A stretch of 31,829 nucleotides of DNA from an uncultured Leptotrichia sp. (GCA_938017765.1 CALIJH010000167.1:1-31829), one strand, 5' to 3'; positions 6,056 to 31,400 are shown, numbered from the stretch's first letter. Numbers and translations: made by a program. Notes: a model not told the origin generated them from the sequence alone.

Positions 6056-6943
6056 ATGAAAAAAATGAAAAAAATTGCACTTTTGGCATTAGTAACAGCG
6101 TTAGTAATAACAGGGTGCGGAAAAAAGGAAAACAAGGAGGACGGAAAAAACGGAACAACAGCACAGGCAGAACAGAATAATGGGGCAGTAGATTTGAGCA
6201 AGGAAACGGCGGAATATAAAAAATTTGTTGAAGAGCAGATTGATATGCTTCTGAAAGATACTGAAAATTTTGCTCAATTATTGAAAAACGGAAAACTTGA
6301 AGAAGCTAAAAAAGTATATCCGTTAATACGTATGGCTTATGAAAGATCAGAGCCTATTGCTGAAAGTTTTGGAGAATCCGACATTAAGATAGATTACCGT
6401 TTAGTGGACTTTAAAGAGGAATTTAATACTGAAGAGGGTTGGAAAGGTTTCCATAGAATTGAAAAAATATTATGGGAGCAAAATACTACAAAGGGTACTG
6501 AAAAGTATGCTGATGAGCTTGTAAATGACATCAAGGAGTTGAAAGCCAAAATAGCGACTATAGAAGTAACTCCTGACATAATGCTTACAGGAGCTATAGA
6601 TTTATTAAATGAAGTTTCCACTCAAAAAATCACAGGAGAGGAAGAAGTATTCTCCCATACTGATTTATATGATTTTAGAGCAAATATTGAGGGAGCACAG
6701 AAAATATTTGAACTATTTAGGTCAAAATTAGAAAAAAAAGACAGCAAACTTGTAGCAACTTTAGATTCAGAGTTTAAAGCTGTAAACGGACTGCTTGACA
6801 AATATATGACAGATGATAAAAACTATAAACTGTACACTGACTTGACAAAGGAGGACACAAAAGCACTTGCGGAAGCTGTAACCAAGCTTGGAGAACCTTT
6901 ATCCCAAATGGGAATAATACTGGATGTAAAAGAAGGTAAGTAA
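6056..6943 (+). CDS. efeO: EfeO/EfeM-like iron-uptake lipoprotein (imelysin / peptidase M75 fold)
   Basis: Lipoprotein signal with lipobox (LVITGC). The M75/imelysin HxxE motif is present (GFHRIEKILW). RBS GGAGG lies 10 nt upstream. At 295 aa there is no N-terminal cupredoxin domain, so it is closer to EfeM-type. Confidence 0.8.
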   Translation: MKKMKKIALLALVTALVITGCGKKENKEDGKNGTTAQAEQNNGAVDLSKETAEYKKFVEEQIDMLLKDTENFAQLLKNGKLEEAKKVYPLIRMAYERSEPIAESFGESDIKIDYRLVDFKEEFNTEEGWKGFHRIEKILWEQNTTKGTEKYADELVNDIKELKAKIATIEVTPDIMLTGAIDLLNEVSTQKITGEEEVFSHTDLYDFRANIEGAQKIFELFRSKLEKKDSKLVATLDSEFKAVNGLLDKYMTDDKNYKLYTDLTKEDTKALAEAVTKLGEPLSQMGIILDVKEGK

Positions 6944-6944
6944 T

Positions 6945-8186
6945 ATGAGTGATGATAACAAAGAAAAAAAATGGTTTGATAAAAAAATATCCCGTCGTGA
7001 TTTTTTAAAAAAAGCGGGAATAGCCGGAGCAGGAGTTGCAGTAGGGGCGACAGGTGTCGGTGCCATTATGTCAAGCCTATTCGGCAATGTTGCCGAACAG
7101 TTTGAGGGGAAAGACGAAATTTCCTTTTATGGAAAACATCAATCGGGAATATCCACTCCCGTACAGAAAAATGTATACTTTGCAGTACTGGAGTTACATT
7201 CCGAAAATAAGGAAGAAGTCAAGGAAATGTTCAAGGAATGGACAGATTATACTGAAAAAATGATGAAAGGGGAGCTTATAGCTCCCGAATTGAAAAATCA
7301 TCTGTTGCCTCCTGTCGATACTGGGGAAACGGTAGGATTAAATCCTTATCGTTTGACTGTAACTTTCGGAATAAGTCCGACATTTTTGGATAAACTGAAA
7401 CTGGACAGTAAAAAAATTGAAGAATTTAAAGATTTGCCCCATTTCCCGAGAGACCAGATAAAAGAACGTTATAAAGGCGGAGATATATGTATTCAGGCTT
7501 GCGCCGATGACGCACAGGTGGCTTTTCATGCGGTGAGAAATCTTGTTCGTAAAGGACGTACACTCATTACACTGAAGTGGAGCCAGTCAGGATTTTTGCC
7601 TATAGGGAATGGAAAAGAAACTCCGAGAAATCTATTCGGATTTAAGGACGGGACTGAAAATCCGAAAAATGAAAATGATTTTAATAATATAGTATGGTAT
7701 GATAAGGATAACTGGCTGAAAGACGGAACATATATGGTGGTGAGACGTATCCAAATGCACCTTGAAACATGGGACCGTACTAATTTGCAGGAACAGGAAA
7801 ATACATTCGGAAGATATAAAGAAAGCGGTGCTCCTTTCGGAGAAAAAGATGAATTTGCCGTGATTGATATAAATAAAAAAGGACCTGACGGAAATCCCGT
7901 ACTTCCCATTGACTCCCATGTGTTTTTAGCAAAAAAGGCTGAAACGAAAATCTGTCGCCGTGCTTTTTCCTATTCTGACGGAATTAATGAAATAAGCGGT
8001 CAGTTTGACGCAGGACTGCTGTTTATATGTTTTCAGAAAAATCCTGAACAGTTTATCAAAATCCAGAACAGTCTCGGAAACGAAGATAAGCTGAATGAGT
8101 ATATTACTCACATAGGTACAGGGATTTTTGCATGTTTCGGAGGGATAAGGAAAGGGGAATATATTGGCCAAAAATTATTTGAATAA
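6945..8186 (+). CDS. efeB: Tat-secreted DyP-type peroxidase / deferrochelatase EfeB
   Basis: Twin-arginine signal SRRDFLKKAGIAGAGVAVGA. DyP-type peroxidase family similarity throughout. It follows efeO with a 1-nt gap. Confidence 0.9.
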   Translation: MSDDNKEKKWFDKKISRRDFLKKAGIAGAGVAVGATGVGAIMSSLFGNVAEQFEGKDEISFYGKHQSGISTPVQKNVYFAVLELHSENKEEVKEMFKEWTDYTEKMMKGELIAPELKNHLLPPVDTGETVGLNPYRLTVTFGISPTFLDKLKLDSKKIEEFKDLPHFPRDQIKERYKGGDICIQACADDAQVAFHAVRNLVRKGRTLITLKWSQSGFLPIGNGKETPRNLFGFKDGTENPKNENDFNNIVWYDKDNWLKDGTYMVVRRIQMHLETWDRTNLQEQENTFGRYKESGAPFGEKDEFAVIDINKKGPDGNPVLPIDSHVFLAKKAETKICRRAFSYSDGINEISGQFDAGLLFICFQKNPEQFIKIQNSLGNEDKLNEYITHIGTGIFACFGGIRKGEYIGQKLFE

Positions 8187-9846
8187 ATTCAGAATTACGT
8201 TATTAGTGTGTTTTGTTTTCTTCTGTGCTAATATTATTGCAAAAGAGAGTTACAGTGAAATTTATGTAAAAATAACCGATGCAACTACTGCCCTTAGAAA
8301 CAATGATAAAAAAGAAGCAGAAAAAATTGCAAAAGAAATAAAAGAAAAATTTAGGACTGTAAAAAATGCCAATTCTCCCCAAGGGTCAAAAGTACAGGAA
8401 CTTCTGAATAAAGGAGATGTAACTGAAGATAATCTGAAAGAGATTACAAAAGCACTTCTGGCATTTGAAAAGGAACAGAATCCTGTTGACGAAACTCAGG
8501 TGAAAAAAGATTTTAAAGCGAAAGTGTTTCCTGCTCTTGATACTCTGGAAAAAGTTATTCGGAGTAAAGACGTGGAAGCTATGAAAAAGGAATATCTGAA
8601 ATATAACGGCGTTTGGACAAGAAATGAAGCAGTAATTAGGGATAGAGACACCGTTTATTACGGAAAAGTCGAAACTGCCATGGCTTTCCTGCGAAGCTCC
8701 ATGGAAATGGAACCTTTCAACTACGACAATGTCATAAGCTCATTTAATGACCTGAAAACCGTTATTCAGGAATTTCTCGACGGAAAGAAAGTCGAAAATG
8801 CTTCTTCTGAAAACATTACTTTAAAACAGGCTGTAGATTTGCTGAAAGAGGGACTTGACGCATTTAAGTCAGGAGATAACGGTACGGGGCAGTCAAAAGT
8901 AAAAAAATTTATACAAGTCTGGCCTACTGTAGAGGGAGATGTAAGTACACGTAACGGTGCCCTTTATACAAAAGTTGAGACACAGACACCCGTAATAATG
9001 GTAAAAGGCGGAGAAAAGCAGTATCAGGAGCAGTTGCAGGGATTGATAGACGAACTGTCCCAAATTGACACAAAAGCCGAATATACTTTTTTGGATGCGA
9101 TGTTTATACTGCTTCGTGAAGGAGTGGAAGCATTGCTGATAGTATTGGCACTGGTGAGCGGACTGAAAGCTGCAAATCAGAAACGTGGACTGAAATGGGT
9201 ATACGCAGGAGCAGTAGCGGGAATTCTTGCGAGTATCGTTATTGCCGTTATTCTTCAAAAAGTGTTTCCGGCTGTGTCTTCGGGGACAAACCGTGAGATA
9301 CTTGAGGGATTTGTAGGTATATTTGCAGTAGCAATGATGATAGGAATAGGAGTATGGCTGCATAGCAGGTCTTCTTTGAAAGCTTGGAAAGACTATATGG
9401 AAAGAAAAATGAATATCGTAGTAAGTACGGGAAGTTTTATTTCGATGTTTGTATTGAGTTTTCTTGCCGTATTCAGGGAAGGTGCCGAAACAATACTGTT
9501 TTATGTAGGAATTTTACCTTTAATATCGGTGCAGAACCTCATCATAGGTATTTTGAGTGCCATCGTAATACTTATCATAATTGCATTGGTTCTTATATAT
9601 GCTTCTTCGAAAATAAAAGTACACAGAGTATTTTTTATACTCACATGGACTATCTATTTTCTTGCGTTTAAAATGTTGGGAACAAGTATTCATATGTTGC
9701 AGGTTGTGGGGGTTGTCCGTTTACATCTGATAAAATTTATACCTACGGTGGAAATATTAGGTATTTACGCGAACTGGGAAGTGTTTATAAGTCAGGTTAT
9801 TTTTATAATCCTGATTGCATCAATAACACTGAAAAGAAAAAAATAA
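8164..9846 (+). CDS. efeU: FTR1-family ferrous iron permease EfeU with ~290-aa N-terminal extracytoplasmic extension
   Basis: Two REGxE motifs (REGVEAL, REGAETI) in TM helices, typical of FTR1/EfeU. It has an N-terminal signal peptide. It apparently starts at TTG and overlaps efeB by 23 nt. Confidence 0.8.
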   Translation: MAKNYLNKFRITLLVCFVFFCANIIAKESYSEIYVKITDATTALRNNDKKEAEKIAKEIKEKFRTVKNANSPQGSKVQELLNKGDVTEDNLKEITKALLAFEKEQNPVDETQVKKDFKAKVFPALDTLEKVIRSKDVEAMKKEYLKYNGVWTRNEAVIRDRDTVYYGKVETAMAFLRSSMEMEPFNYDNVISSFNDLKTVIQEFLDGKKVENASSENITLKQAVDLLKEGLDAFKSGDNGTGQSKVKKFIQVWPTVEGDVSTRNGALYTKVETQTPVIMVKGGEKQYQEQLQGLIDELSQIDTKAEYTFLDAMFILLREGVEALLIVLALVSGLKAANQKRGLKWVYAGAVAGILASIVIAVILQKVFPAVSSGTNREILEGFVGIFAVAMMIGIGVWLHSRSSLKAWKDYMERKMNIVVSTGSFISMFVLSFLAVFREGAETILFYVGILPLISVQNLIIGILSAIVILIIIALVLIYASSKIKVHRVFFILTWTIYFLAFKMLGTSIHMLQVVGVVRLHLIKFIPTVEILGIYANWEVFISQVIFIILIASITLKRKK

Positions 9847-9936
9847 TAAAAATAAAATGATTTTGTCTACTTTTGTCCGTATAATGACAGTAGCCATAGC
9901 AAAAAAATAAAAAAGAAAAAAAGAAAGGATGTGTCC

Positions 9937-10647
9937 ATGTCGGAAGATAAAGCTCAAACATTAATAGAGCATATCGGAGAATTCAGGAAAAGGCTTATAA
10001 TAACAATAATATTTTTTCTGATTGCATTTTCAGTAAGTCTGATATTCTGTGCAGATATTTATAAAATGCTGACATATCCTTTTTCAAAAAAACTTGTCGT
10101 GTTAGGGCCTAACGATATTCTTGAGATATATATTACACTGGCAGGGATATGTGCTTTCAGTTTTACACTGCCTTTCGCGAGTTATCAGCTGTGGGCGTTT
10201 GTAAAACCGGGACTGAAAGAAAAAGAAGCTAAAATGGTGCTTTCATATATTCCCGCAATATTTATTCTGTTTGTTTCGGGACTTGCTTTCGGCTTTTTTA
10301 CGGTAACACCTGCACTTTTGAAAGTACTGCTTTCTATCGGGGAAGACCTGTTTAGTGTGCAGGTTACTGCACAAAGTTATCTGAAATTTGTAATACATAC
10401 TTCATTGCCTATTGCATTTGTTTTTGAACTGCCTGTTATAGCGGCTTTTCTGACATCATTACATATTTTGACCCCTGCTTATCTGGTAAAGAACAGAAGA
10501 TACGGATACTTTATATTGCTTGTACTGGCAGTCATTCTGACTCCTGCCGATTTCATAAGTGATTTGGCAATGACAGTACCGTTAATTCTGATTTATGAAG
10601 TAAGCGTCGTGGTCAGTAAATATATTTATAGGAAAAGGAGAGGATAG
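9937..10647 (+). CDS. tatC: Twin-arginine translocase subunit TatC
   Basis: Six-TM protein with the TatC N-terminal 'HIGEFRKRLI' region. AAAGGA lies 7 nt before the ATG at 9937. The ORF track starts 6 nt earlier at GTG 9931. Confidence 0.9.
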   Translation: MSEDKAQTLIEHIGEFRKRLIITIIFFLIAFSVSLIFCADIYKMLTYPFSKKLVVLGPNDILEIYITLAGICAFSFTLPFASYQLWAFVKPGLKEKEAKMVLSYIPAIFILFVSGLAFGFFTVTPALLKVLLSIGEDLFSVQVTAQSYLKFVIHTSLPIAFVFELPVIAAFLTSLHILTPAYLVKNRRYGYFILLVLAVILTPADFISDLAMTVPLILIYEVSVVVSKYIYRKRRG

Positions 10648-10650
10648 TAA

Positions 10651-10845
10651 ATGGGAATTTTTAGAGATATTGGGACACCCGGACTGATAGTCATAATACT
10701 GGGAGCATTACTTATTTTTGGACCTAAACGTCTGCCGGAACTGGGAGAAGCTGTAGGAAAAATGCTTAAAGAATTTAAAAAATCAATGTCTGATATAACA
10801 GATGAAAACGATACTAAAAAAAATGATGACAAAGAAAAACAGTAA
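10651..10845 (+). CDS. tatA: Twin-arginine translocase subunit TatA/E
   Basis: 64 aa. Single TM followed by the amphipathic helix LIFGPKRLPELG, the canonical TatA motif. Strong RBS GGAGAGG. Confidence 0.9.
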   Translation: MGIFRDIGTPGLIVIILGALLIFGPKRLPELGEAVGKMLKEFKKSMSDITDENDTKKNDDKEKQ

Positions 10846-10932: not shown

Positions 10933-10963
10933 AATATGTAACTTTAGTTACATATTTTTTTTA
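10933..10963 (+). terminator. Rho-independent terminator after tatA (ATATGTAACT-tt-AGTTACATAT + T8)
   Basis: Perfect 10-11 bp inverted repeat followed by a T-run. It lies 90 nt downstream of the tatA stop. Confidence 0.6.
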
Positions 10964-11030
10964 TGAATATGATATAATTGGATATACAAAATAATTGAAT
11001 ATATAATTTTTTGATAGATTAAAGATAAAG

Positions 11031-11095
11031 TTTATAAAAAAAGAAAAAAGAAAAAAGAAAAAAAAGAAAGAAAATAGAAAAAGAAAGGCAGCATA
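11031..11095. repeat. Poly-purine simple sequence repeat (AAAAAAG)n
   Basis: Runs of A6-8 punctuated by single G (aaaaaaagaaaaaagaaaaaagaaaaaaaagaaagaaaatagaaaaagaaagg) in the intergenic region upstream of the DUF1858 cassette. Confidence 0.8.
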
Positions 11096-11212
11096 TCAAT
11101 AATATTGAACTAAAATTCTGAATATTCTTTATCTATAACTATAGAATAAAAAGAAAACAAATCAAAAATATCGAATTAAAATATAATTGAGATATAAGAA
11201 AGGAGAAATATT

Positions 11213-12439
11213 ATGAATAAATTTTTCGGCTTAAATGATACATTGTATCAAATTGTGGAAAAATATCCCGAAACACTCGAATTTTTTATAGCTAACGGAT
11301 TTGAGCAGCTAAAAAATAAACAGATGTTTGAGTCAATGGCAAAAAATATAAAACTCAATATGGCTTTAAAAATAAAGAAAATCAATCCTGAATTGTTTGA
11401 AGAAAAATTAGTTGCATTTTTGCAGAAAGACAGCGAAACTGATATCTCCCTTGAGGGGAAAAAGGAAAATGCCACGGGAGATATACTTATAGAGGGAGTT
11501 TTACCCTGTCCTATCAGGATACCTCTGCTGGAAGGCATAAAAAAATGGGCTGAAACGAGAAATAAAGAAGTAGATTATAAGATAGATTATGAATTGCAGT
11601 CGGCAAATCTGGGCTTGGACTGGGTTGTGGATAAAGTGAAAACAGGAAACCCTGATAAAGTCTCGGATATACTCTTATCGGCAGGGTTTGAGTTGTTTTT
11701 TGACAAGGAGCTTATGGGGCAGTTTATGGAAAAAGGAATATTTGAAACATATTTAAATGATATGAACAAAGATTTCTGTAATGAAGAAATTGACTTAAGA
11801 GACCCTAAAAAACAGTATGCCATAATGGGAGTAGTCCCTGCTGTGTTCCTTATAAATAAAACAGTTCTTGGAGACAGAAAGCCACCTGAAGTATGGGAAG
11901 ATATATTGAGCGAAGAACTGGAAGATTCGGTAGCTTTACCGATGAATGACCTCGACTTGTTCAATGCTCTCATTATCAATATATACAAAGACTACGGTTC
12001 TGAAGGTATTCAGAAACTTGCAAGGTCTTACAAGAAAAATCTTCATCCGGCACAAATGGTGAAAGCCAAAGGGAGAAGTGGAGACGCACCTGCCGTAAGT
12101 ATAATTCCGTATTTCTTTACACAGATGCTAATGGGAGCGACCGACCTCGAAGCCGTATGGCCGAAAGACGGGGCGTTACTCAGTCCTATATTTATGATTA
12201 CAAAAAAGTCCAAAAAAGATAAAATTCAGCCTTTTATAGATTTCTTTATGTCCGAAGAAATAGGGACACTGTTTTCCGCTAACGGAAAATTTCCGTCGAC
12301 AAATCCCAATGTGGACAATCATCTGAAAGAAGACCAGAAATTTAAATGGATTGGCTGGGATTTCATTCATAGCAATGACGTCGGAGGATTAGTCAGAAAA
12401 TGCGAAGATGAATTTAACGAAGCCATTATGAAATTATAA
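11213..12439 (+). CDS. Cytoplasmic DUF1858-like N-terminal domain fused to a periplasmic-binding-protein (PBP type II, SBP family 1-like) domain; function unknown
   Basis: 408 aa with RBS AAAGGAG. The first ~70 aa (…EKYPETLEFFIANGF…) resemble DUF1858/ScdA_N. The C-terminal part carries 'IQPFIDFFMSEEIGTLFSANGKFPS', resembling the SBP_bac_1-type 'FIDFLLSxEgQ' motif. No signal peptide. Confidence 0.65.
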   Translation: MNKFFGLNDTLYQIVEKYPETLEFFIANGFEQLKNKQMFESMAKNIKLNMALKIKKINPELFEEKLVAFLQKDSETDISLEGKKENATGDILIEGVLPCPIRIPLLEGIKKWAETRNKEVDYKIDYELQSANLGLDWVVDKVKTGNPDKVSDILLSAGFELFFDKELMGQFMEKGIFETYLNDMNKDFCNEEIDLRDPKKQYAIMGVVPAVFLINKTVLGDRKPPEVWEDILSEELEDSVALPMNDLDLFNALIINIYKDYGSEGIQKLARSYKKNLHPAQMVKAKGRSGDAPAVSIIPYFFTQMLMGATDLEAVWPKDGALLSPIFMITKKSKKDKIQPFIDFFMSEEIGTLFSANGKFPSTNPNVDNHLKEDQKFKWIGWDFIHSNDVGGLVRKCEDEFNEAIMKL

Positions 12440-12554
12440 TAAAATAACTGTGATGAAGATAAAGATCTGAATTATAGTTATAACAATATCAAAGAATATC
12501 AAGGTGTATGATAAGATATGATAAGACAAAAAAAATGATTATTCAGGAGGAAAT

Positions 12555-13259
12555 ATGAATTTAATAATAGTTTCAGGACCACCCTCATCAGGAAAAACAA
12601 GTGTAATATTGAAAACTGTTGACGCCCTGAAGAAACAGGGAATGTCAGTGGGAGTAGTAAAATTTGACTGCTTGTATACAGATGACGATATATTGTATGA
12701 AAAAGCAGGAATACCTGTAAAAAAAGGTATTTCGGGAGCATTATGTCCTGACCATTTTTTTGTATCGAATATAGAAGAAGTAGTACAGTGGGGCAGAAGT
12801 TTGGGACTTTCCATGCTTATAACCGAATCGGCGGGTCTTTGTAATCGTTGTTCGCCATATATAAAGGATATAAAAGGGATATGTGTAATCGACAATCTGT
12901 CGGGCATAAATACACCTAAAAAAATAGGACCTATGCTGAAAGCCGCAGATATAGTTATTATTACTAAAGGAGATATTGTTTCGCAGGCTGAAAGGGAAGT
13001 ATTTGCCTCAAGGGTAAATTCTGTAAATCCCGGTGCTATAACAATGCACGTAAACGGGCTTACAGGACAGGGAGCCTATGAATTAAGCACACTGCTTTAT
13101 GAAAAGGAAAAAGAAATAGAAACTGTTCAGGGGAAAAAACTCAGATTTCCTATGCCGTCGGCTCTATGTTCCTATTGTCTTGGGGAAACGAGAATAGGAG
13201 AAAAATATCAAATGGGAAATGTCAGAAAAATGAATTTAGGCGGTAATAACGATGAATAA
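12555..13259 (+). CDS. SIMIBI-class P-loop GTPase, G3E family-like (HypB/UreG/CobW-like putative metallochaperone)
   Basis: Walker A GPPSSGKTS at residue 8. Switch-II-like ESAGLCNRCSP (cf. HypB ENVGNLVCP). TKGD (NKxD-like) and a 'NGLTGQG' G5-like motif are present. Additional C-terminal CSYC motif. Strong RBS AGGAGG. Confidence 0.7.
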   Translation: MNLIIVSGPPSSGKTSVILKTVDALKKQGMSVGVVKFDCLYTDDDILYEKAGIPVKKGISGALCPDHFFVSNIEEVVQWGRSLGLSMLITESAGLCNRCSPYIKDIKGICVIDNLSGINTPKKIGPMLKAADIVIITKGDIVSQAEREVFASRVNSVNPGAITMHVNGLTGQGAYELSTLLYEKEKEIETVQGKKLRFPMPSALCSYCLGETRIGEKYQMGNVRKMNLGGNNDE

Positions 13260-14265
13260 AAAACTTGTAGATGAACTGAAAATGTCCGAATTACTGGACA
13301 AGTATCCTTTTACGGAAAATTTTTTCAGTGAAAATGTTATCGACATAAAAGGTCATGAAAATGAGACATTCAGTGAGTTCTTAGATAAATTTGCCGAAGA
13401 AGAAATAGAAGATATGGCATTGGATACAGAAAAAATAAAAGAGGGGTTAATCGAATATATCGAACAGATGAAGCTGTTTCTTGGAATGGAAGAAGAGAGC
13501 GGTGTCGAAGTTCTGACAATAATTGCGGGAAAAGATAAAACGGGTAATCCTGAAGGTTTTGAAAGACTTGATATAAACAAATCGGAAATAATATCTATAG
13601 TAGGGCCTACAGGCTCTGGAAAATCAAGACTGCTCGCAGATATAGAATGGACGGCTCAAAAAGATACGCCGACACAGAGAGAAATACTTATTAACGGGGA
13701 GCTGCCTGACAAAAAATGGAGATATTCATCAAACAATAAGCTTGTCGCCCAGTTATCCCAAAATATGAATTTTGTCATGGATTTATCCGTGAGGGATTTT
13801 TTGGAATTGCATGCTAAAAGCAGAATGATAGATGATATTCAGGGAGTAACTGATAAAATCATAGAAGAAGCAAATAAACTTGCAGGAGAGCAGTTTAATC
13901 TCGATACGCCGATTACAGCCCTCAGTGGGGGACAGTCAAGGGCATTGATGATAGCAGACACTGCAATACTAAGTTCTTCGCCTATAGTCCTGATAGATGA
14001 GATTGAAAATGCGGGAATTGACAGAAAGAAAGCCCTCGATTTACTCGTTTCATCAGATAAGATTGTACTTATGGCGACTCATGACCCCACATTGGCATTG
14101 ATAGCCGATAAAAGAATTATAATCAAAAATGGAGGTATTTCAAAAATAATAAAAACAAGCCCTAAAGAAAAGAAAATTTTGTCAAAGCTTGAAGAAATGG
14201 ATAATATTATCCAAAAAATGAGAACAGATTTAAGAAATGGGGAAATATTGACAGATAATAAATAA
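13252..14265 (+). CDS. Soluble ABC-type ATPase with N-terminal DUF1858-like module (no cognate permease in locus)
   Basis: Walker A GPTGSGKS, ABC signature LSGGQSRAL, Walker B IVLIDEIENAGID and H-loop MATHD are present. The N-terminus MNKKLVDELKMSELLDKYPFTENFF is paralogous to the N-terminus of the 11213 ORF. It overlaps the upstream GTPase gene by 8 nt. Confidence 0.8.
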   Translation: MNKKLVDELKMSELLDKYPFTENFFSENVIDIKGHENETFSEFLDKFAEEEIEDMALDTEKIKEGLIEYIEQMKLFLGMEEESGVEVLTIIAGKDKTGNPEGFERLDINKSEIISIVGPTGSGKSRLLADIEWTAQKDTPTQREILINGELPDKKWRYSSNNKLVAQLSQNMNFVMDLSVRDFLELHAKSRMIDDIQGVTDKIIEEANKLAGEQFNLDTPITALSGGQSRALMIADTAILSSSPIVLIDEIENAGIDRKKALDLLVSSDKIVLMATHDPTLALIADKRIIIKNGGISKIIKTSPKEKKILSKLEEMDNIIQKMRTDLRNGEILTDNK

Positions 14266-14485: not shown

Positions 14486-15157
14486 TTATATCTCATCTTT
14501 AAACATTATAACAAATACCGATAACAGTATAATACAGCAAACTAAAAGAGCTTTTTCCTTGAATATTTCGGAAAAAAATGAACCTGTAACAGCACCAATC
14601 ATAAAAAAAAGTATAAGACCGTAATAAGTCAGAAATTTATGCTTTGCATCTCTGTTCTTAGTTGACAGATAGTTATAGAGATTTTCCGTCCCGCTTCTCA
14701 GGTTTCCTGTACACATTGTTGTAGCGGAAAGGTTGCCTCGTGTTTTTCTGAATCCCTGTACCTGCAAGGAGCAGACAAATGATATTGCAATATTTACAAA
14801 AACATTCAGCTCTCCTTTAGGAATAAAAGAAGAGATGAATAAAACTGCAACTTCTATAAGGATAACAATCTGTCTCCAATGAATTTTGTTATGCTTGAAT
14901 TTCTTTTTGATAATCTCGGCAATCAGAATGCCCACTGCAAAAGCAAATATAGGTAAAAAGTAAAATAAAGCGTCTCTCCATCTTTTTTCGACTAACCTCA
15001 AAGCAAAAAAGACCATATTTCCTGTTTGAGCGTTGGCGAGAACTTTTCCTCTCATAATAAAAGTGTAAGCGTCAGTAAAGCCGCCTACAAGACAAAGCAG
15101 TAATGCCAGTCTGAAAGTATCCGAAGTCTGTTTTTTTGATTTTATGTTTTCTTTCAT
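14486..15157 (-). CDS. YoaK-family (DUF1275/UPF0700) inner-membrane protein
   Basis: 223 aa and multi-TM. 'GGFTDAYTF...LANAQTGN' matches the DUF1275 signature. RBS GGAGAG lies 9 nt upstream. Confidence 0.8.
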   Translation of the reverse strand: MKENIKSKKQTSDTFRLALLLCLVGGFTDAYTFIMRGKVLANAQTGNMVFFALRLVEKRWRDALFYFLPIFAFAVGILIAEIIKKKFKHNKIHWRQIVILIEVAVLFISSFIPKGELNVFVNIAISFVCSLQVQGFRKTRGNLSATTMCTGNLRSGTENLYNYLSTKNRDAKHKFLTYYGLILFFMIGAVTGSFFSEIFKEKALLVCCIILLSVFVIMFKDEI

Positions 15158-15366: not shown

Positions 15367-15590
15367 TAATCAGAAATAAAAAATTCTGGTCTATTCGTTA
15401 CCGACGATACAATTTTTGGGCTTTACTCTTTCTTAATGGGGTCAGACTTTTGTATTTTGAATCAGGCACATCACGGCGGTTCTATACTTTGCACGGATTC
15501 TGTACAATTTACAAATATGACTACCACCTGTACCAACTACAGGCGACCAAAAATTCAGTCGAAACGGTAGATTGGATTTTTTTAATTTGT
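15367..15590 (+). ncRNA. Candidate small non-coding RNA (GC-enriched structured region driven by consensus promoter); identity unknown
   Basis: About 220 nt with clearly higher GC than the flanking intergenic DNA. It contains several hairpins (e.g. CCTGTA-ccaac-TACAGG at 15528-15544) and no ORF longer than 16 codons. It ends in a T-rich stretch near 15590. Confidence 0.3.
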
Positions 15591-15953: not shown

Positions 15954-16616
15954 TTATAATTTCGAAAAATCTACCTGATATTTATTGTTTTTAATTTTTT
16001 TCAAAATACCTCTATCGCATAATGTCGAGATTTCCCTCGAAAGGGAGGGTCTTGTAATTTCAAATTTTTTTGAAAGTTCGGATATATTGGGCTGAAATGA
16101 GATAATCCCGTCTTTTTGATTTTCCCTTATATAGCTGAGGATTTTGTCATTTATAGTTTTATTGACAAAATTAAACCATATTCTTTTGGATAAAAGCTGA
16201 CTTTTATTGGATATTTCATCGAGGAAATTTAAAAGAATTCTCTTATCCTCCTGCATAATTTCCACAAAATCTTTTTTATTCAGAAATAAATATTTGGATT
16301 TTTCAACGGAAATGAGGTCTACAGGGAAAACTTTAGTATCTCCGAATATAAATGCGGGAGCTATAATTTCGTAAGTTTTTATAAAGTCAATAGTGATAGT
16401 TTCTCCCCCTGATTTCTGCATTTCCCCTTTGGCAGAGCCTTCGAGGATAATGATGATATTTTCAATATTATCTCCTCTGAAAAATACCGTTTCATTTTTT
16501 TTATAATTTCTGATATGATAATTTATTTTTTTTAGTACGGCTTCTGTTTCATTTATGTCAAATCCTTTAAATAAGGAAACTTTTGATATTATTTTATAAA
16601 GTTCGTGGGGTTTCAT
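15954..16616 (-). CDS. Crp/Fnr-family transcriptional regulator (cNMP-binding domain + C-terminal HTH)
   Basis: 220 aa with an N-terminal cyclic-nucleotide-binding-like beta-roll. C-terminal HTH 'ISELSKKFEITRPSLSREISTLCDRGILKK'. There is no N-terminal Cys cluster, so it is not an FNR-type O2 sensor. RBS GGGAGG. Confidence 0.85.
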   Translation of the reverse strand: MKPHELYKIISKVSLFKGFDINETEAVLKKINYHIRNYKKNETVFFRGDNIENIIIILEGSAKGEMQKSGGETITIDFIKTYEIIAPAFIFGDTKVFPVDLISVEKSKYLFLNKKDFVEIMQEDKRILLNFLDEISNKSQLLSKRIWFNFVNKTINDKILSYIRENQKDGIISFQPNISELSKKFEITRPSLSREISTLCDRGILKKIKNNKYQVDFSKL

Positions 16617-18252: not shown

Positions 18253-19794
18253 ATGAATATATTATTATGGGGAATATTTTATATAATAACTTCAATAATT
18301 CTTTTATATTTTTTCTTAAGAGAAAAACAGGTAGTGAATTTTATAAGAAAAAAAGAAGACGATATACTGAAAAATATTCCCATAGGAGATGAGGGAGAAG
18401 GAAAAAGAATAAAACTCGGAAATATTATAACAGTTTTAGGGATAGCCGTTTCCGTTATTTTCTTTTTTATAGTGGATAAGGAACCCGATTATGTAATTAA
18501 GCTTAAAATCTGGGGAATATACGGAATGTTTATCCTGAATATGATATTTTTGGTTATGAGGGAACAGCATGAATGGATATTTCTTTCAAATCTGATAATG
18601 CTTTTTTTAGGAAAATTGATGTTCAATATTTTAGATACAAATTTTTATATATATCTATTTGCGACTATGATACTGTCATTTCCGTTGATTTTCCTTTATA
18701 GAAAACCTTCAAAAGAAAGAATTTTGGAGTCAACCGTAAGAAATGATTCAAAACCCGGAGAATTTACAAAAGCACTGGAAAAAATTCAAAAAGAAACAGG
18801 GATGAGTCAGGAAGATGCTAAAAAAGAGCTGATAGAAATAGAAAAAAGAAAACAGAGTACATTGGGAAGAGCTTTTGCAAGAATGGATACGGCGATAACT
18901 GCTGTAGTTCTCGTTCTTCTGATACAGGCATTTTATCTGGGGAATTATGTAATACCTACGGGTTCTATGGAGCCTACAATAAAAGTAAAAGACAGAGTGT
19001 TTGCCAATATGATAAAATACAAGTTTTCCAATCCGAAAGTTGGTGATATTGTAGCATTCAAAGAGCCTGTAACTGATAAAATAATGTATACTAAAAGAAT
19101 AGTGGGAGTTGCAGGACAGACGTTGCAAATTAAAGATATTTCCGTTATGACTTTGACAGACCCCTCGACAGATAGTTCCGAAGAAACCAATGCAGGCAGA
19201 ATTTATTTAGATGACAAACTGTCCGAAGTTTTAAACAGACCTTACAGTATAGAAGCTCTTTTGAAAGACAATAAAATATATATACCGAAAAAAGGGGATA
19301 AAGTCAAACTGGATAAAATTATAGCGATATCAAAATTGGCGGGTTATGCCACTAATTCCGATAAAGATAATTTTTATATAGTTCAAACAAACTGGGAAGG
19401 CTATAAACAAGGTCAGGATTATGAAGAAATGACCGCAGAGCAGTTTTTGAGTAGAATAAATACAAAAAAAGACTTTAAAAACATTATAGGAAATTCTTCA
19501 GGGGAATATAATGAAAATGACCCTAAAACAAATACATATTATACATTCACATTAAAAGTCGAAGGAAGAGATGAACTCGTTTTACCGATACAGGATTTTA
19601 AATATAACGATGAAATGTTTATGAAACTCTTAAACGGAGAAACAGTAACTCTTGATAAAAATTATTATATGGCAATGGGAGATAATACTACAAACAGTTT
19701 GGACTCGAGATTTTTCGGATATGTTGCCGAAGACAGGATAAAAGGAAATCTTCTTTTGAGATGGTGGCCTTTAAACAGAGTAGGATTGATGTAG
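18253..19794 (+). CDS. lepB: Signal peptidase I (S26 family) with ~200-aa N-terminal multi-TM extension
   Basis: The catalytic Ser box GSMEPT and the Lys box 'YTKRIVGVAGQ' are present. C-terminal box E reads 'YYMAMGDNTTNSLDSRFFGYV'. The N-terminal 200 aa carry about 4 extra TM helices that canonical LepB lacks. Confidence 0.85.
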   Translation: MNILLWGIFYIITSIILLYFFLREKQVVNFIRKKEDDILKNIPIGDEGEGKRIKLGNIITVLGIAVSVIFFFIVDKEPDYVIKLKIWGIYGMFILNMIFLVMREQHEWIFLSNLIMLFLGKLMFNILDTNFYIYLFATMILSFPLIFLYRKPSKERILESTVRNDSKPGEFTKALEKIQKETGMSQEDAKKELIEIEKRKQSTLGRAFARMDTAITAVVLVLLIQAFYLGNYVIPTGSMEPTIKVKDRVFANMIKYKFSNPKVGDIVAFKEPVTDKIMYTKRIVGVAGQTLQIKDISVMTLTDPSTDSSEETNAGRIYLDDKLSEVLNRPYSIEALLKDNKIYIPKKGDKVKLDKIIAISKLAGYATNSDKDNFYIVQTNWEGYKQGQDYEEMTAEQFLSRINTKKDFKNIIGNSSGEYNENDPKTNTYYTFTLKVEGRDELVLPIQDFKYNDEMFMKLLNGETVTLDKNYYMAMGDNTTNSLDSRFFGYVAEDRIKGNLLLRWWPLNRVGLM

Positions 19795-25118: not shown

Positions 25119-25411
25119 GCTGTTTCTAAAAAAAACTTTGTATATCAATAATTACATTAGGTTGAAATGATAATTAAAAAATAATAAAATTTTTAAAAAT
25201 AGATTTTTTTTATCAATATGGAGTAGACATAAAAATGAAAACGAGGTATATTTTATAAAAGAATATTAAATATTGTTTTATTTAGTATTAATATAATGGG
25301 CTATTTTTAAATTTTTGGCGAAAAAAGGAGAAAAAAATGAAAAATATATTTTAACAGAACTATTTATTCACTAAAAATTAAATTTTCAAGCATAAAAGGA
25401 GGAAAAAGTAT

Positions 25412-28400
25412 ATGATCAGTAATTTAGAAAAATTGAAAAAGGAGCTGAAATCTTTTGCAAAGAGGACAAAGGACTTTAAATACACGGATTCCGTATTGAT
25501 ATTGTTTCTTTTAGTAGGGGTTATAAGTCTTGTAGAAACGACTAATCTTTTCGCTGCCGGAGACAGTATAGGAGAGCAGAGAAAACAACTCAACAGTTCT
25601 ATCAGCAATATGAAACAGTCAATCAGAAAAGCACGGACAGAAAATAACAAACTTCTCAGTTCTGCCACAATAGAGCTTATCCAATTAATGGAACAGGGAG
25701 ATCATGTTGTAAAATCGCCTTGGAGTTCGTGGCAGTTTGGACAGAATTTTGAATATAATAATTGGCGTGGAACTTTTAAAGGGCGTGGAGACAAAACGGA
25801 AAAATATCCTTACGAAGGTTTATTTAAAAGGGGAAATTCCATATTTGAAAGATATGCTTCCCCTATCAGCCCAAACTATGACAGACTCTCGGCAATTTCA
25901 TCATTAAATAAAACGGATATATATTCGGCTTCATCGAATAATAGAGAAGGGATAGAGCCGGGTTATGGACTTGTGCGTATTCGTCAGGCGCAGGAGCCAA
26001 TTGTTGCAATTAATGTAGATGCTTCGATAAGACCAAAAGTGGTAGATGTGAGTATTCCAAATTTGGGAATACAGGCACCTTCATTAAATGCATTGAACGT
26101 ACCTAACTTAATTCCGCCTTCACTTAACATACCTACACCTGACCCGATTGTAGTACCTGACAAGACACCTAACATTGTGATAAATCCAACATTGGATTAC
26201 CGTTTTGCCGGGCGTAATATAGATGGTTTAGGATGGCCTCACAGAAGAGAAGCTAATGGACAAGGTAAACATTTCTGGTCCGGATGGAATCCGGATACAA
26301 ATCAGAAAGATAGAAGATCAGTATGGAAACATTCTTTAATTGGTGGGACACCTGATCCTATAAGAGTTCCAAACTTGATGTATGTAAATGCGGTAAACAG
26401 AAATCCGGGTTCAAGATGGAGAGCTTGGGATGCTACAATTGATATAGCCGGAGACCCTAGCTGGGGAGGAAGCGGACCAAATGATGCCAGAGGAACTATA
26501 GGAATCCATACAGTATGGGACGGAAGTATTGAAAACATACATGCAACTCTTCATGGATATTCAGCTTTTATTGCAACAGAAGGGTGGCATAGTGGAAAAG
26601 TAGATATAATTAATACAACTGTAGATGTTCAGGGAGAATACAATACAGTATTTCATAATTATCCGGGAGCATACTATACAATAGGAATAAATAATAATGA
26701 TTATCAGTCTTATCATCAAAGAGGGAAATATAGCGGAGATTTGAGAATAAATATAAATGCCAATAATAACTATATTTATACTGTTATGGGAGTTCAGGGA
26801 GCATATAAATATGACAATCTCTCAGACTATGTTATAAATGGTAATGGTAATATTGTTTATTTAGGAATAGGATATGTTCCAAATCTTGATACCCTTAGAA
26901 ATGGAGAAACAGGATTTCAAACTGGTAGGCCGATGATATCGGATTTGCGTCATGACGAAAACTTGACTCCTGTTATTCAGTTAGGAACACAAACAGGGGC
27001 GATACGTGTAAATGGTAATGGAAATGTTGGATTAATGTTTGAAAACTTGTATAGAAATTTCCATACCGGAGATAATTTGCCATACAATTCGCTTCATGAT
27101 TTCCGTGATTATGTTGAAGTAGAGCAAAATGGTTGGGCGAAAAGTGTAATAGGTATTTATCAAGGGGAAATTGAAATGGGAATGAAAATAGGAGAAACTT
27201 CTGAATCTAAAGGAAATGTAGGAATAATTTCAAGATCCGGTCAAAGGTCGTACATAATTCCAAGCTATGATTTGGGGGCACCTGATGATTATCTGAAACA
27301 AAAGTCTATAGATATAGCTTTTAATACAAAAGGAGTAACTTCACAGGGAATTCCGCTACTTGATGACGACCCGATACATAACCTTGAAATAGCAAAGGCT
27401 GAAATTTATTATGGTAAATATTCAACAGACGGAATATCTATTATAGCAGACAGAGGAACGGTAATAGATGTGGCAAGACCTGATAAAGCTAAAACTCCGT
27501 ATGTTCCTGATACAGATCCTAATGATGGCATTGATGACTCAAGAGCTGAACAACGTCAACCATACAAGGATGTAACTCCTTCAACTTCAATAAATGATTC
27601 AGCAGGAACAGTAATAAGTTCTGTAGATGATACAGTAAACCAAGCAGCGACAGGAACAATTATCGCTTATTCAAAAGGTGTTTGGAATAATGAATTTATG
27701 AACTCGAATATGTATAGCGATCCTATTGTAGATCTTTATGGTAAACCGAGTGAAGTTAATCTTTATGCGCCTGTAAGGCTGTCAGGAAGATCAGGATTTA
27801 CGCCTTCCGGTCAGGTAAATCCGTCAATTGCATTGTTTACCGAAGAATCCGGAATAATTAATGCTAAAGAAAAAGTTACTGCAATGGGATACGGATCAAT
27901 AGTTGCGTATGCAATGAACTATGGGGTTATAAATGCTGAAAAAGAAATTGTGGCTAAAGATGAATGGGCAGCAACAGATGACGCAACAAAGCCTTATCTA
28001 TATAATAATGTAGGGGCTTATGCCGGCTCTCTCGGTACAGTAAATGTAACTGGAAATGTAGATGTTCACGGTATAGGAGCTATGGCTTCAGGAGCGTATG
28101 CCGTCGTAAATCTTAACGGAACGGGAAATACAATCAGAACAGGAACAAAAGGTGGATTGGTCGCAACTCAAGGTGGAATAGTAAACTTTAAGGGTGGTAC
28201 AATTACACACGCTGAAAATGAAGAAGATGACCACGATTCAAGTACGCCAATGTTTGCTGATGCGACATCACACATAAACTTTACAGGACCTACAACAATT
28301 AACATTGCAAACGGTATCCTTATGCCGGGAACAACAGCCGATTATGAGGCAACAACTCCTAACGTTACAAAATATAACGGAATGAACAATGTAACAATAA

Positions 28401-31400
28401 ACTTGACAGGAGATGACGTTGTATTGCGTTCAAATAACGGACATGCACCTTTCCATTGGACCGGAGGTTCAATTATTGGAATAATAAAGAATGATATGAA
28501 ACTTGCAGCATTTAATGACAACGGGCATGTTCTTAAAATTTACTATATAAACGGACAGACATTTATAGATACTGATGTCAACTTGGATGACAATACAAAT
28601 GACTTTAACCGTATCAAAATGTCAAGAGAGCTTGTAACAATAAGTTCGGGAGTAGTAATAGGATCTTCTCAAGGAAAAGGGCTTGCAATGGGATCTAACA
28701 GCTCTGCGACGTCAGTTAATGATTCAGGGTATATAAATAAAGGCTCTTTAAACATTACTGGAGGAAATATTAACACAACAGCTGGACTTAATACAAGTTA
28801 CGGATTTATGGACAATCAGGGAATGGTTTATCTTGATAGCGGAATAGGTCTTTATGGAGTAAATGGAAGTAAATTCCTAAATAACACTAACGGAACAATC
28901 TATACTACCGGACAGGGAGTTGGAATGGCAGCGTTCGCTTCTGCTACATCGGGACTTCAAGACTACGGAACAGATAAAAAAATTAAAAACAGTGCATTAG
29001 GACTTCCAAATGGATTGACTGCCTCTGACAAAGTTCTTGATATGGAAAATAAAGGTATAATAGAAATAGATGGAGCACAGTCGGTAGGTATCTTTGGACA
29101 GACAAACGAAGTTGCCGCAACAAGAAGAACGCCGGCAACTCCAGCAGGACTTCTTACAGCACAAAACGGACTTATCACAAATACAGGTAGAATAATAATG
29201 AACGGAGACGAGTCTGTAGGTATCCTTGCCAAGAGAGTAACTGTAAATTTAGGCGGAACCGGAAGTTCGGATATTATTGTAGGAAATAAGGGTATTGGAG
29301 TATATACAGAAAAAACTCCTGTAAATATCGTATCTGCTACAGGAATTGAAGTGAAGGACAAAGGAGTCGGAGTATTCGTTAAAAATGACGGAAGTACAAT
29401 TTCAGGTTCGCCGCTTGAAATCAAATATACAGGTGCCGCTAATGAATCAGCAGCAGGAATATTCTATGAAGGCGGGACAAACCATACAAATACAGTAGAT
29501 GTAAATATGGTAAACAGAACAAGTGATAACGGAATTGTAGGAATATTCATAAATAACAGCGGAACACTTACAAATAACGCAACAATAAAAGACTTGAGCG
29601 GAAAAGGTTACGGAATCTACTCCCAAGGAGGAGATGTAGTTAATAACGGAACGCTCGTAATGGGAGAAGCCGGAAAAGGTATTTTAAGTACAGGCGGAAA
29701 TGTAACACTTGCACCCGGCTCAACAATCACATTAGGGCAAAATAATGCAATCGGTGTATATGCATTAGGTTCAGGAAGTACGGTTACAGCACAAAATGGA
29801 GCAAATATGACAATTGGAGACGGTTCATACGGATTCGTAAATAAAGGGAACGGAAATACGATAACAAGTAACGTGGCTTCACAAAGTCTACCAACTAACG
29901 CTGTATATGTTTATTCAGCTGACGGAGCGGGAACTGTAACAAATAATACACAGTTAGTTTCGACAGGTTCGGCTAACTATGGTATCTATGCAGCAGGAAA
30001 CATTGTAAATGATGCAGACATCAACTTCTCAAATGGAATTGGAAACGTAGGTATTTACAGTATAAATGGCGGTACTGCGGTAAATAAAATTGGAAGAAAA
30101 ATAACAGTAGGAGCTTCAAACCCGGATCCTAGGGAAAATCAATACGCAATCGGTATGGCGGCAGGATATGTAGGAGATTCGCAAATCGGTCCATATACAG
30201 GAAATATAACAAACTACGGTACAATTGATGTAAATGGTGAACTTGGTATCGGAATGTATGGAGCAACAGCTGGAACAACAGTAATAAATAACGGAACAAT
30301 AAACCTTAATGCAAGCAATACTACCGGAATGTACCTTGACAAAGGGGCATACGGTATAAACAACGGTATCATTAAATCTAATGGAACGGGACTTAAAAAA
30401 GTAATCGGAGTAGTTGTAAAATCAGGTTCGACTATTGAAAACAATGGAGTAATTGACATTGACGCTAAACAAGCGGTAGGATTGCTGACAAAAAGAGATG
30501 AAAGCGGAAACAATCCCGGAATTATAAGAAACTATGGAACATTGCACATAAGAGGGGTAGGCGCAACAGATGTCTATGAAACGCCTGCAAGGGAAGATAT
30601 TGGCAAAAATATGGCAGGAGTAAACATTCATGCACCGGCAGGGTCATCAGTAGCAACAATAACAGTAAACGGAGTACCTGTAGTACCTGAAATTGCAACA
30701 ACAACAGCTGAAGAATATACACCTATGGAAGTATCAACAATAGGAATGTATATTGATACGTCAAACAAGAGATTTACAACACCGGTTACAGGGCTAAGAT
30801 CGCTTGACAACCTTACAAATGCAGATTTGATAATCGGTACAGAAGCTGCTCGAAATACAACGAGCAAATATATCCAAATTTCTGAAAGAATATTGAAGCC
30901 GTATAACGATATGATAATTGCAAATCCTCAAATAGAAAAATGGAATATTTATGCAGGATCGCTTACTTGGATGGCAAGTATATCTCAAAATCAGACTGAC
31001 GGAACTATCCAGAATGCATACTTGGCTAAGGTACCATATACTGCGTGGGCAGGAGATAGAAGACTGTCAGGCATCAGTTCAGGTGATGAAGAGAGTAAAG
31101 CACCTAATACATTCAACTTTTTGAATGGTCTGGAACAAAGATACGGAGTGGAAGCAATAGGGACAGGAGAAAATAATCTGTTTCAAAAATTAAACAATAT
31201 AGGAAACAACGAAGAAGTGTTATTCTTCCAAGCAATAGATGAAATGATGGGACATCAGTATGCAAACGTGCAGCAGAGAATAAGCAGTACAGGAAAAGCC
31301 CTTGACAAAGAGATAAATAAACTGGGAAGAGAATGGGATACATCTTCGAAGAAATCAAACAAGATAACAACATTCGGTATAAGGGACGAGTATAAGACAA

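Follow-up and report, generated by a model that had tools for sequence, protein, structure and literature searches.

A conserved cytoplasmic triad of binding protein, G3E GTPase and ABC ATPase in Leptotrichia and other anaerobes: a candidate nitric oxide-responsive system for iron-centre delivery or repair

Introduction

The G3E family of P-loop GTPases has four described subfamilies, which handle Ni, Zn, Co or cobalamin, and carbon monoxide dehydrogenase (CODH) requires the P-loop NTPase CooC in order to complete its cluster (PMC9164220). Here we describe three adjacent genes, g1, g2 and g3, on a 31,829-nt stretch of DNA from an uncultured Leptotrichia sp. (GCA_938017765.1 CALIJH010000167.1:1-31829, the whole of which is termed the window below), its best named homologues placing the source organism in that genus. 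These genes encode a cytoplasmic binding protein, a G3E-family GTPase and a soluble ATP-binding cassette (ABC) ATPase, an ordered triad that recurs in several phyla of anaerobes, frequently behind an operator of the HcpR2 type and often close to hcp. We propose, with confidence that is evenly divided, that the triad is a nitric oxide (NO)-induced, nucleotide-driven system for the delivery or repair of iron or Fe-S centres in Hcp-type enzymes.

Anaerobes, oral and gut pathogens and commensals among them, rely on Hcp as a central enzyme of NO detoxification, and CODH is its structural relative within the same Prismane family. We know of no accessory factor for the hybrid cluster of Hcp. The RIC/YtfE/ScdA proteins have an N-terminal ScdA_N/DUF1858-like helical module, and in E. 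coli YtfE works alongside Hcp. Experiments in other organisms have established that HcpR mediates the response to NO and nitrite; the motif of its HcpR2 branch, GTAACnnnnGTTAC, was derived by Rodionov et al. (2005; PMC1274295), and a Pro replacing the Glu at CRP position 181 is the signature of that branch (PMC1274295).

Results

The three genes form one operon and encode a cytoplasmic unit without a permease:

11213-12439, + strand: g1, 408 aa, cytoplasmic binding protein (DUF1858 plus SBP_bac_6)
12555-13259, + strand: g2, 234 aa, G3E-family P-loop GTPase
13252-14265, + strand: g3, 337 aa, soluble ABC ATPase

Conservation of the triad was followed in about 80 fetched best-matching loci, whilst neighbour clustering and counts of genomic context covered 83 related loci. 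An initial annotation of the window had recorded the tight linkage of these genes and an 8-nt overlap between the reading frames of g2 and g3, and the open reading frames (ORFs) agree with it, as do strong ribosome-binding sites, AAGGAG at 11200-11205 before g1 and AGGAGG at 12545-12550 before g2. That annotation also held that the set lacks a transmembrane (TM) subunit, which was borne out, since hydropathy gave no TM segment in any of the three proteins, unlike the neighbouring EfeO, EfeU, TatC and TatA, and neighbour clustering across the 83 loci found no conserved permease or other membrane protein.

Hardly any of the ~80 best loci departs from the order g1-g2-g3, an arrangement far beyond chance, and these loci come from five or more phyla of anaerobes: Leptotrichia and Fusobacteriaceae (Fusobacteriota), Clostridia and Tissierellia (Bacillota), Treponema (Spirochaetota), Labilibaculum and Ancylomarina (Bacteroidota), Aminicenantes/Acidobacteriota and Halanaerobiales. 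A pattern scan that took one genome per species gave at least 570 species genomes encoding g2, the figure being a lower bound, and at least 1274 homologues share the architecture of g1. When identities were compared across phyla in the same loci, g2 was 78-86% identical, g3 58-75% and g1 41-64% (g3 and g1 outside Leptotrichia), and because the values for g2 lie far above those for its partners this GTPase is under exceptional constraint.

The coupling of g2 and g3 is visible both in the overlap of their genes and in natural single-chain fusions (P0363, 509 aa; P0364, 613 aa). P0363 has no counterpart of the g3 N-terminal helical domain and P0364 retains that domain behind an Ala/Pro-rich linker. 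An apparent g1-g2 fusion, P0430, looks frameshifted and was not counted as evidence. Some Treponema loci hold g2 and g3 only, and two distant variants were found. One (L087:810-3795) consists of a divergent Crp/Fnr gene followed by genes in the order GTPase (45% identity to g2), ABC (244 aa) and solute-binding protein (SBP; 279 aa), the last with neither DUF1858 nor signal peptide; DUF1858 modules are absent from this branch, and the locus adjoins a complete, separate FecCD-type importer and nitrogenase-like Oxidored_nitro genes. In the other (L089:2-2441) a radical SAM gene precedes a GTPase (35% identity to g2) and an ABC gene. Together, the g2-g3 fusions and the distant GTPase-ABC-SBP variants show that the triad is one functional unit, whose core is formed by g2 and g3, as seen in the Treponema loci, the fusions and the 45% and 35% branches. 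The DUF1858 modules are lost when partners are fused or differently arranged and are therefore probably tethers.

Upstream of g1 lies a predicted promoter with an operator of the HcpR2 type, and a candidate regulator is encoded 1.7 kb downstream of the triad:

10933-10956, no strand assigned: HcpR2-type operator, a 10-4-10 inverted repeat AATATGTAAC TTTA GTTACATATT with the core GTAACTTTAGTTAC at 10938-10951
10970-10978, + strand: predicted extended -10 element TGaTATAAT, read from the sequence
10985-11212, + strand: long A-rich 5' leader, including a low-complexity stretch of ~170 nt that is missing from the alignment of other Leptotrichia loci
15954-16616, - strand: Crp/Fnr-family regulator of HcpR2 type

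The operator sits in a 367-nt gap between tatA and g1, and nowhere else in the 31.8 kb of the window is GTAACNNNNGTTAC matched exactly, as it is by the operator core, GTAAC-N4-GTTAC. Its centre, 10944.5, would fall at about -41.5 from a predicted transcription start near 10985, from which we infer the class II geometry of Crp/Fnr activation. The operator and its spacing from the -10 element are conserved in other Leptotrichia loci (the operator is kept in L008 and L009), and no Rfam family matched the g1 leader at 10985-11212.

Operator boxes were counted in 79 loci, in the 400 nt that precede the first gene of the triad, and the locus sequence scanned came to 1.32 Mb. The exact box precedes the triad in 42 of the 79 loci, rising to 54 when one mismatch is allowed, such that 42 of the 67 exact sites in the scanned sequence lie in the 2.7% of it just upstream of the triad. 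Many of the remaining exact sites precede hcp. In Treponema the box stands 51 nt upstream of g2.

The product of 15954-16616 matches Pfam cNMP_binding and, in the PDB, both 1O5L (E 6e-27), a Crp-family protein of Thermotoga, and 5V30/6NP6 (E 1e-13), taken here to be P. gingivalis HcpR. Its recognition helix, RPSLSR, carries the HcpR2 Pro signature, and the P-S-x-x-R within it agrees with the DNA contacts published for B. thetaiotaomicron HcpR. Homologous Crp/Fnr regulators adjoin the triad in 13 loci. We regard this regulator as the protein that probably activates the triad in response to NO.

The neighbourhood comparison did not uphold what the initial annotation had drawn from gene context. 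It showed that the triad is conserved, and the genes and sites with which it co-occurs are hcp and HcpR boxes, not the efeUOB-tat block found beside it in the window. A Prismane-family hcp gene lies within 10 kb in 29 of the 83 loci, and in 24 of those 29 it is on the same strand and no more than 2.5 kb downstream, a count to be read against the 61 of 83 loci whose sequence extends 2.5 kb or more downstream. Flavodiiron protein genes occur nearby in seven loci, DUF2249, MOSC and DJ-1 genes are present in smaller numbers, and AhpC and nitroreductase genes are further neighbours. Since boxes, regulator and hcp linkage all recur, the triad appears to be a widespread and apparently unreported member of the HcpR2 regulon, and the same three lines of evidence indicate nitrosative stress, not iron limitation.

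The efe genes are indeed present: efeO, efeB and efeU followed by tatC and tatA occupy 6056-10845, on the same strand and directly upstream of the triad. In the 83 related loci, which include five others from Leptotrichia, the block never lies beside the triad; the presence of the iron-uptake block could be confirmed and its value as functional context could not. Nor was a Fur box found before the efe genes, as had been supposed: no 19-mer in the whole window came within three mismatches of the consensus, and only a TGATAAT half-site was seen, upstream of efeO. EfeB carries a Tat signal motif, and the efeU ORF has a TTG start that overlaps efeB.

Directly after g3, in 33-35 of the 83 loci and in several phyla, is a gene for an 80-aa Cys-rich protein (for example L073:6913-7155, L062:12091-12333 and L070:4103-4345), whereas neither the window nor the Leptotrichia loci contain it. 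The protein always begins with MH[DE]GC, contains a zinc ribbon of the form CxxC...CPxC, and is weakly HypA-like (Pfam E 9e-4; TIGR00100 E 3e-3). In HypA it is an N-terminal MHE motif that binds Ni, and by analogy we treat the HypA-like start of the 80-aa protein as a lead only.

The g1 protein combines two domains in a way that the initial annotation had described correctly. In Pfam, DUF1858 (PF08984) covers residues 7-62 with 57.8 bits, the gathering score being 32.2, and SBP_bac_6 covers residues 148-388 (E 2.7e-82); the N-terminus also matches 2FI0 (E 6e-6), the founding structure of DUF1858. In an AlphaFold2 (AF2) model with a confidence (pLDDT) of 84, a helical module is joined by a disordered linker (aa 73-87) to a two-lobed binding-protein domain (aa ~91-408) of the class-D SBP fold, the closest solved folds being those of the ferric-binding proteins FbpA/FutA and of AfuA and P5PA. 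The C-terminal motif FIDFxxSxE is found as PFIDFFMSEE at aa 340-349.

That this protein has no signal peptide was also confirmed. Its maximum 10-residue N-terminal hydropathy is 1.0, compared with 3.1 for the nearby EfeO lipoprotein, DUF1858 begins at residue 7, and 74 g1 homologues share the same start point, none of them with a hydrophobic leader. Across these 74 sequences a single Cys is invariant, Cys99 in the motif GVLPCP right after the first strand, together with several Asp, Tyr, His and Trp residues, whilst the DUF1858 module has no conserved Cys. When PDB sequences were searched with a g1 profile, only the DUF1858 structure was returned at E<1e-3. Transfer of a ligand from weak SBP matches (P5PA, PotD, cFbpA) was rejected, the ligand residues not being transferable.

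The HypB/UreG-like GTPase g2 matches PF02492 (cobW/HypB/UreG) at 44.9 bits against a cut-off of 20.7. Its motifs are G1 GPPSSGKT, CPDH, G3 ESAG followed by CNRC, G4 TKGD and a C-terminal CSYC; ESAGLCNRCSP (aa 91-101) and CSYC (aa 205-208), the Cys-containing switch II and the C-terminal CxxC of the initial annotation, are invariant in nine cross-phylum sequences, in which seven Cys are invariant. Aligned with UreG (4HI0) and HypB (2HF8), g2 places CPDH on the metal-binding CPH of UreG.

Assignment of g2 to a standard family was tried with NCBIfam models and their cut-offs, and all scores fell far short. As HypB it reached 40.5 bits against 121.2 (TIGR00073), and there are no hyp or hydrogenase genes in the 83 neighbourhoods; as UreG 30.2 against 204.2 (TIGR00101), with an aligned CPH-like motif but no urease genes nearby; as MobB 27.1 against 76.2 (TIGR00176), a match to the P-loop alone (residues 4-38); and as COG0523/CobW 12 against 332 (TIGR02475), with no CxCC motif. 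Cobalamin and CODH genes are likewise missing from the 83 neighbourhoods. Because it is without CxCC and its motifs and scores fit none of them, g2 falls outside all four described subfamilies (PMC9164220), and on these sequence grounds it is an undescribed G3E subfamily of metallochaperone type.

The g3 protein is, as had been proposed, a soluble ABC ATPase. ABC_tran (PF00005) covers residues 106-250 at 59.5 bits (cut-off 25) within a nucleotide-binding domain (NBD) at aa ~88-300, and Walker A, LSGGQ, Walker B (IDE) and the H-loop are all intact, GPTGSGKS, LSGGQS, VLIDEIE and ATHD each being at least 95% conserved in 80 homologues. The best PDB sequence matches are transporter NBDs, and all named NCBIfam matches are weak and none specific. 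A search for anti-phage defence systems with PADLOC matched neither g1 nor g2, and g3 only at a generic ABC/AAA level.

Less well supported was a further point of that annotation, namely that g1 and g3 have their N-terminal module in common. Residues 1-103 gave no Pfam match to DUF1858 even at E<=1, and an hhalign comparison with the g1 N-domain was colinear (9-73 on 9-73, E 6e-4) at a probability of only 28%. Helices at 11-17, 21-27 and 59-77 in the N-terminal part of the AF2 model (pLDDT 70-86) mirror those of g1, so this helical domain of ~80 aa may be DUF1858-like. The model was built from a shallow alignment of 14 sequences at 84-99% identity and has an overall pLDDT of 55, for which reason only its N-terminal helices are usable and its fold matches, PhnK included, carry little weight.

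Further features of the window lie downstream of the triad. A gene for a DUF1275 membrane protein (14486-15157, - strand) converges on g3 and is found beside the triad also in the Leptotrichia loci L009 and L010 and nowhere else, so the adjacency is probably lineage-specific synteny. Between this gene and that of the HcpR-like regulator is a 6S RNA gene (15380-15582, + strand; Rfam RF00013, scoring 53.3 bits where the gathering threshold is 46.4). An unusually long signal peptidase I ORF (513 aa; 18253-19794, + strand) has two separate Peptidase_S26 matches, and an ORF of more than 2149 codons (~25382-31829, + strand), with an N-terminal hydrophobic segment, runs past the end of the window and probably encodes a giant surface adhesin or autotransporter.

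Discussion

The triad is cytoplasmic, conserved, marked by an HcpR signature and often found beside hcp, which makes a machine for loading or repairing metal centres, as opposed to a transporter, the most likely reading; the initial annotation, too, had arrived at an intracellular system for metal or cofactor trafficking or insertion. As to what such a machine would do, our preferred proposal, for which we see the case as balanced on a knife-edge, is NO-induced delivery or repair of iron or Fe-S centres in Hcp-type enzymes, and within it we infer NO induction, complex formation and the identities of metal and client. NO would activate the HcpR-type regulator encoded at 15954-16616, which would bind the box at 10938-10951 and switch the operon on. 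The GTPase g2 would form a dimer whose invariant Cys and His residues carry a metal ion or a small Fe-S unit, with CPDH and CNRC at an interface of the UreG/HypB type plus the extra CSYC. Physically associated with it, g3 would supply an ATP-driven clamp or power stroke, g1 would capture or hand over a ligand, most likely iron, and the DUF1858 modules would dock g1, and probably g3, onto the complex. Iron enzymes that are sensitive to NO or detoxify it, Hcp foremost among them, would thereby be supplied with iron or Fe-S by the three proteins or have it re-inserted. Iron is the likely metal in that ferric-binding proteins give the g1 model its best fold matches and both candidate clients are iron enzymes. 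By analogy, Ni delivery by HypA/HypB and UreE/UreG and the service of CooC to CODH support such a role.

Several observations weigh against this proposal. Hcp from several organisms gains its hybrid cluster in E. coli, which lacks the triad, and a dedicated maturase is therefore not strictly required. Neither hcp nor the gene for the 80-aa protein stands next to the triad in the window. Foldseek scores iron-, sugar-phosphate-, pyridoxal phosphate (PLP)-, thiamine- and polyamine-binding proteins about equally for g1, and the Tyr/His/Glu ligand set of FbpA could not be aligned onto it. The DUF1858-like assignment in g3 is weak. In the window the box lies 275 nt before the ATG, compared with about 80-107 nt elsewhere, a displacement due to the ~170 nt of extra leader. 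No recognisable GTAAC-type box was found in about 25 of the 79 loci, including all those from Peptostreptococcus, whose lack of it could be explained by a divergent motif, given that the C. difficile HcpR motif differs from the GTAAC type (PMC1274295). Finally, support for the mechanism is computational, with expression, binding and metal content predicted.

In a more ambitious form of the proposal, the triad, joined by the 80-aa protein in those loci that have it, would be the first machinery dedicated to maturing or repairing the hybrid [4Fe-2S-2O] cluster of Hcp or, more broadly, to serving iron centres in NO reductases. Such an 'ABC transporter without a membrane' would moreover constitute a machine of a new class: under NO stress, iron or Fe-S would be moved into a client by a cytoplasmic binding protein together with an ABC ATPase and a fifth, hitherto undescribed G3E subfamily. 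We regard this form as speculative and give it roughly one chance in four.

Two other explanations retain some standing. In the first, which we think unlikely, the triad would be an NO-stress metallochaperone for a metal other than iron and for many clients, for instance buffering and re-inserting NO-released Zn, or handling Ni or Co. The known G3E subfamilies handle Ni, Zn, Co and cobalamin (PMC9164220), the g2 site is rich in Cys and His like those of UreG and HypB, the 80-aa protein resembles the Zn ribbon of HypA, and many loci, the window included, have no adjacent hcp. Set against this are neighbourhoods free of urease, hydrogenase, CODH and cobalamin genes, a g2 without the CxCC of the Zn-linked COG0523 group, recurrent neighbours that are iron enzymes, and a g1 fold nearest to ferric-binding proteins.

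The second, of the same low probability, is that the triad handles a small molecule related to nitrogen oxides and does not build metal centres: g1 would bind, for example, nitrite, hydroxylamine, a dinitrosyl-iron complex or an S-nitrosothiol, and the NTPases would pass it to Hcp or the flavodiiron protein or would signal its presence. The evidence from the HcpR regulon and the hcp neighbourhood applies equally here, the SBP fold binds very diverse small ligands, cyanobacterial NrtC and CmpC, which are among the matches of g3, carry cytoplasmic SBP-like regulatory modules on ABC ATPases, and DUF1858 proteins occur in NO- and nitrate-responsive regulons of other bacteria. Such handling would, however, leave unexplained both the extremely conserved, Cys-rich G3E GTPase core and the loss of the SBP from loci that keep g2 and g3 (Treponema, L089), and we know of no earlier case in which a soluble reductase receives its substrate from an NTP-driven system.

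Less probable still is a Fur-controlled trafficking system for iron limitation, coupled to the EfeUOB-Tat block, for although EfeO, EfeB, EfeU, TatC and TatA are encoded directly upstream on the same strand and g1 resembles ferric-binding proteins, the adjacency is confined to the window amongst the loci compared, the 367-nt gap with its own HcpR-type promoter parts tatA from g1, and a Fur box is absent from the window at the threshold given above. An ordinary ABC importer of iron or a similar solute, with its permease encoded elsewhere and the g1 start mis-called, is essentially excluded: g1 does belong to an 'extracellular solute-binding protein' family (SBP_bac_6), its homologues are named 'iron ABC transporter substrate-binding protein' in public annotation, and g3 is a standard NBD closest in sequence to those of transporters, but g1 is folded as DUF1858 from residue 7, homologues with signal peptides beside permeases were not found in the 83 loci, a G3E GTPase always stands between SBP and NBD and is sometimes fused to the latter, and the SBP of the distant variant is leaderless beside a complete importer of its own.

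Should the proposal of iron or Fe-S delivery to Hcp-type enzymes under NO stress be correct, a fifth subfamily of G3E metallochaperones would be added, and the triad would clearly exemplify how SBP and ABC-ATPase parts can be put to new use in the cytoplasm. The public label 'iron ABC transporter' is a mislabel for these genes. The triad is in any event a genetically testable candidate for building or repairing Hcp-type iron centres, also in anaerobes without YtfE, and its weight as a candidate comes from its breadth, from a GTPase ~80% identical across phyla and from apparently direct control by HcpR.

Set beside known systems, the parts of the triad belong to known superfamilies and their combination is without a described counterpart in the curated libraries and literature searched, in keeping with the initial annotation. 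NCBIfam holds no specific model for g1, g2 or g3, and a full-text literature search, the scope of which excluded most subscription journals, returned no paper describing the triad. With the G3E systems HypA/HypB and UreE/UreG, g2 shares the P-loop, the Glu of G3 (ESAG) and the [N/T]KxD motif; it is like UreG in its CPDH and like HypB in the Cys after switch II, and, as HypB has HypA, it is accompanied in a third of loci by the MH[DE]GC Zn-ribbon protein. A functional analogy with CooC and CODH lies in the membership of the candidate client, Hcp, in the CODH family. The GTPase g2 differs from the G3E systems in scoring far below every subfamily cut-off, in having no COG0523 CxCC, in its unprecedented partners, a soluble ABC ATPase and a cytoplasmic SBP, and in the apparent regulation of the triad by an NO sensor as opposed to Ni or Zn, away from hydrogenase, urease and CODH genes.

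Importers of the FbpABC, AfuABC and FutABC type resemble the triad in the fold that g1 adopts (SBP_bac_6) and in the canonical NBD motifs that g3 shows, and differ from it in that the triad has no signal peptide, permease or membrane component, has gained N-terminal helical modules and includes an obligatory GTPase. Like SufC of SufBCD and PhnK/PhnL of C-P lyase, g3 is a cytoplasmic ABC ATPase without a TM domain that presumably acts as an ATP-driven clamp, and PhnK is among the fold matches of its low-confidence model; g3 is not close to them, however, and its partners are a G3E GTPase and an SBP in place of SufB/D or the PhnGHIJ core. With RIC/YtfE/ScdA the triad shares an association with NO stress and a helical N-terminal module of the ScdA_N/DUF1858 kind. 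Unlike those proteins it has no hemerythrin-like di-iron domain in g1, g2 or g3 (Pfam, E<=1), and it would be NTPase-driven, with a g1 DUF1858 module that has no conserved Cys. The described HcpR2 regulon is closest in its control: the descriptions compared list hcp, frdX and assorted redox genes and not a GTPase/ABC/SBP triad, whilst the operator upstream of g1 equals the published consensus, the regulator encoded nearby has a recognition helix of HcpR2 type, and the triad is frequently adjacent to hcp.

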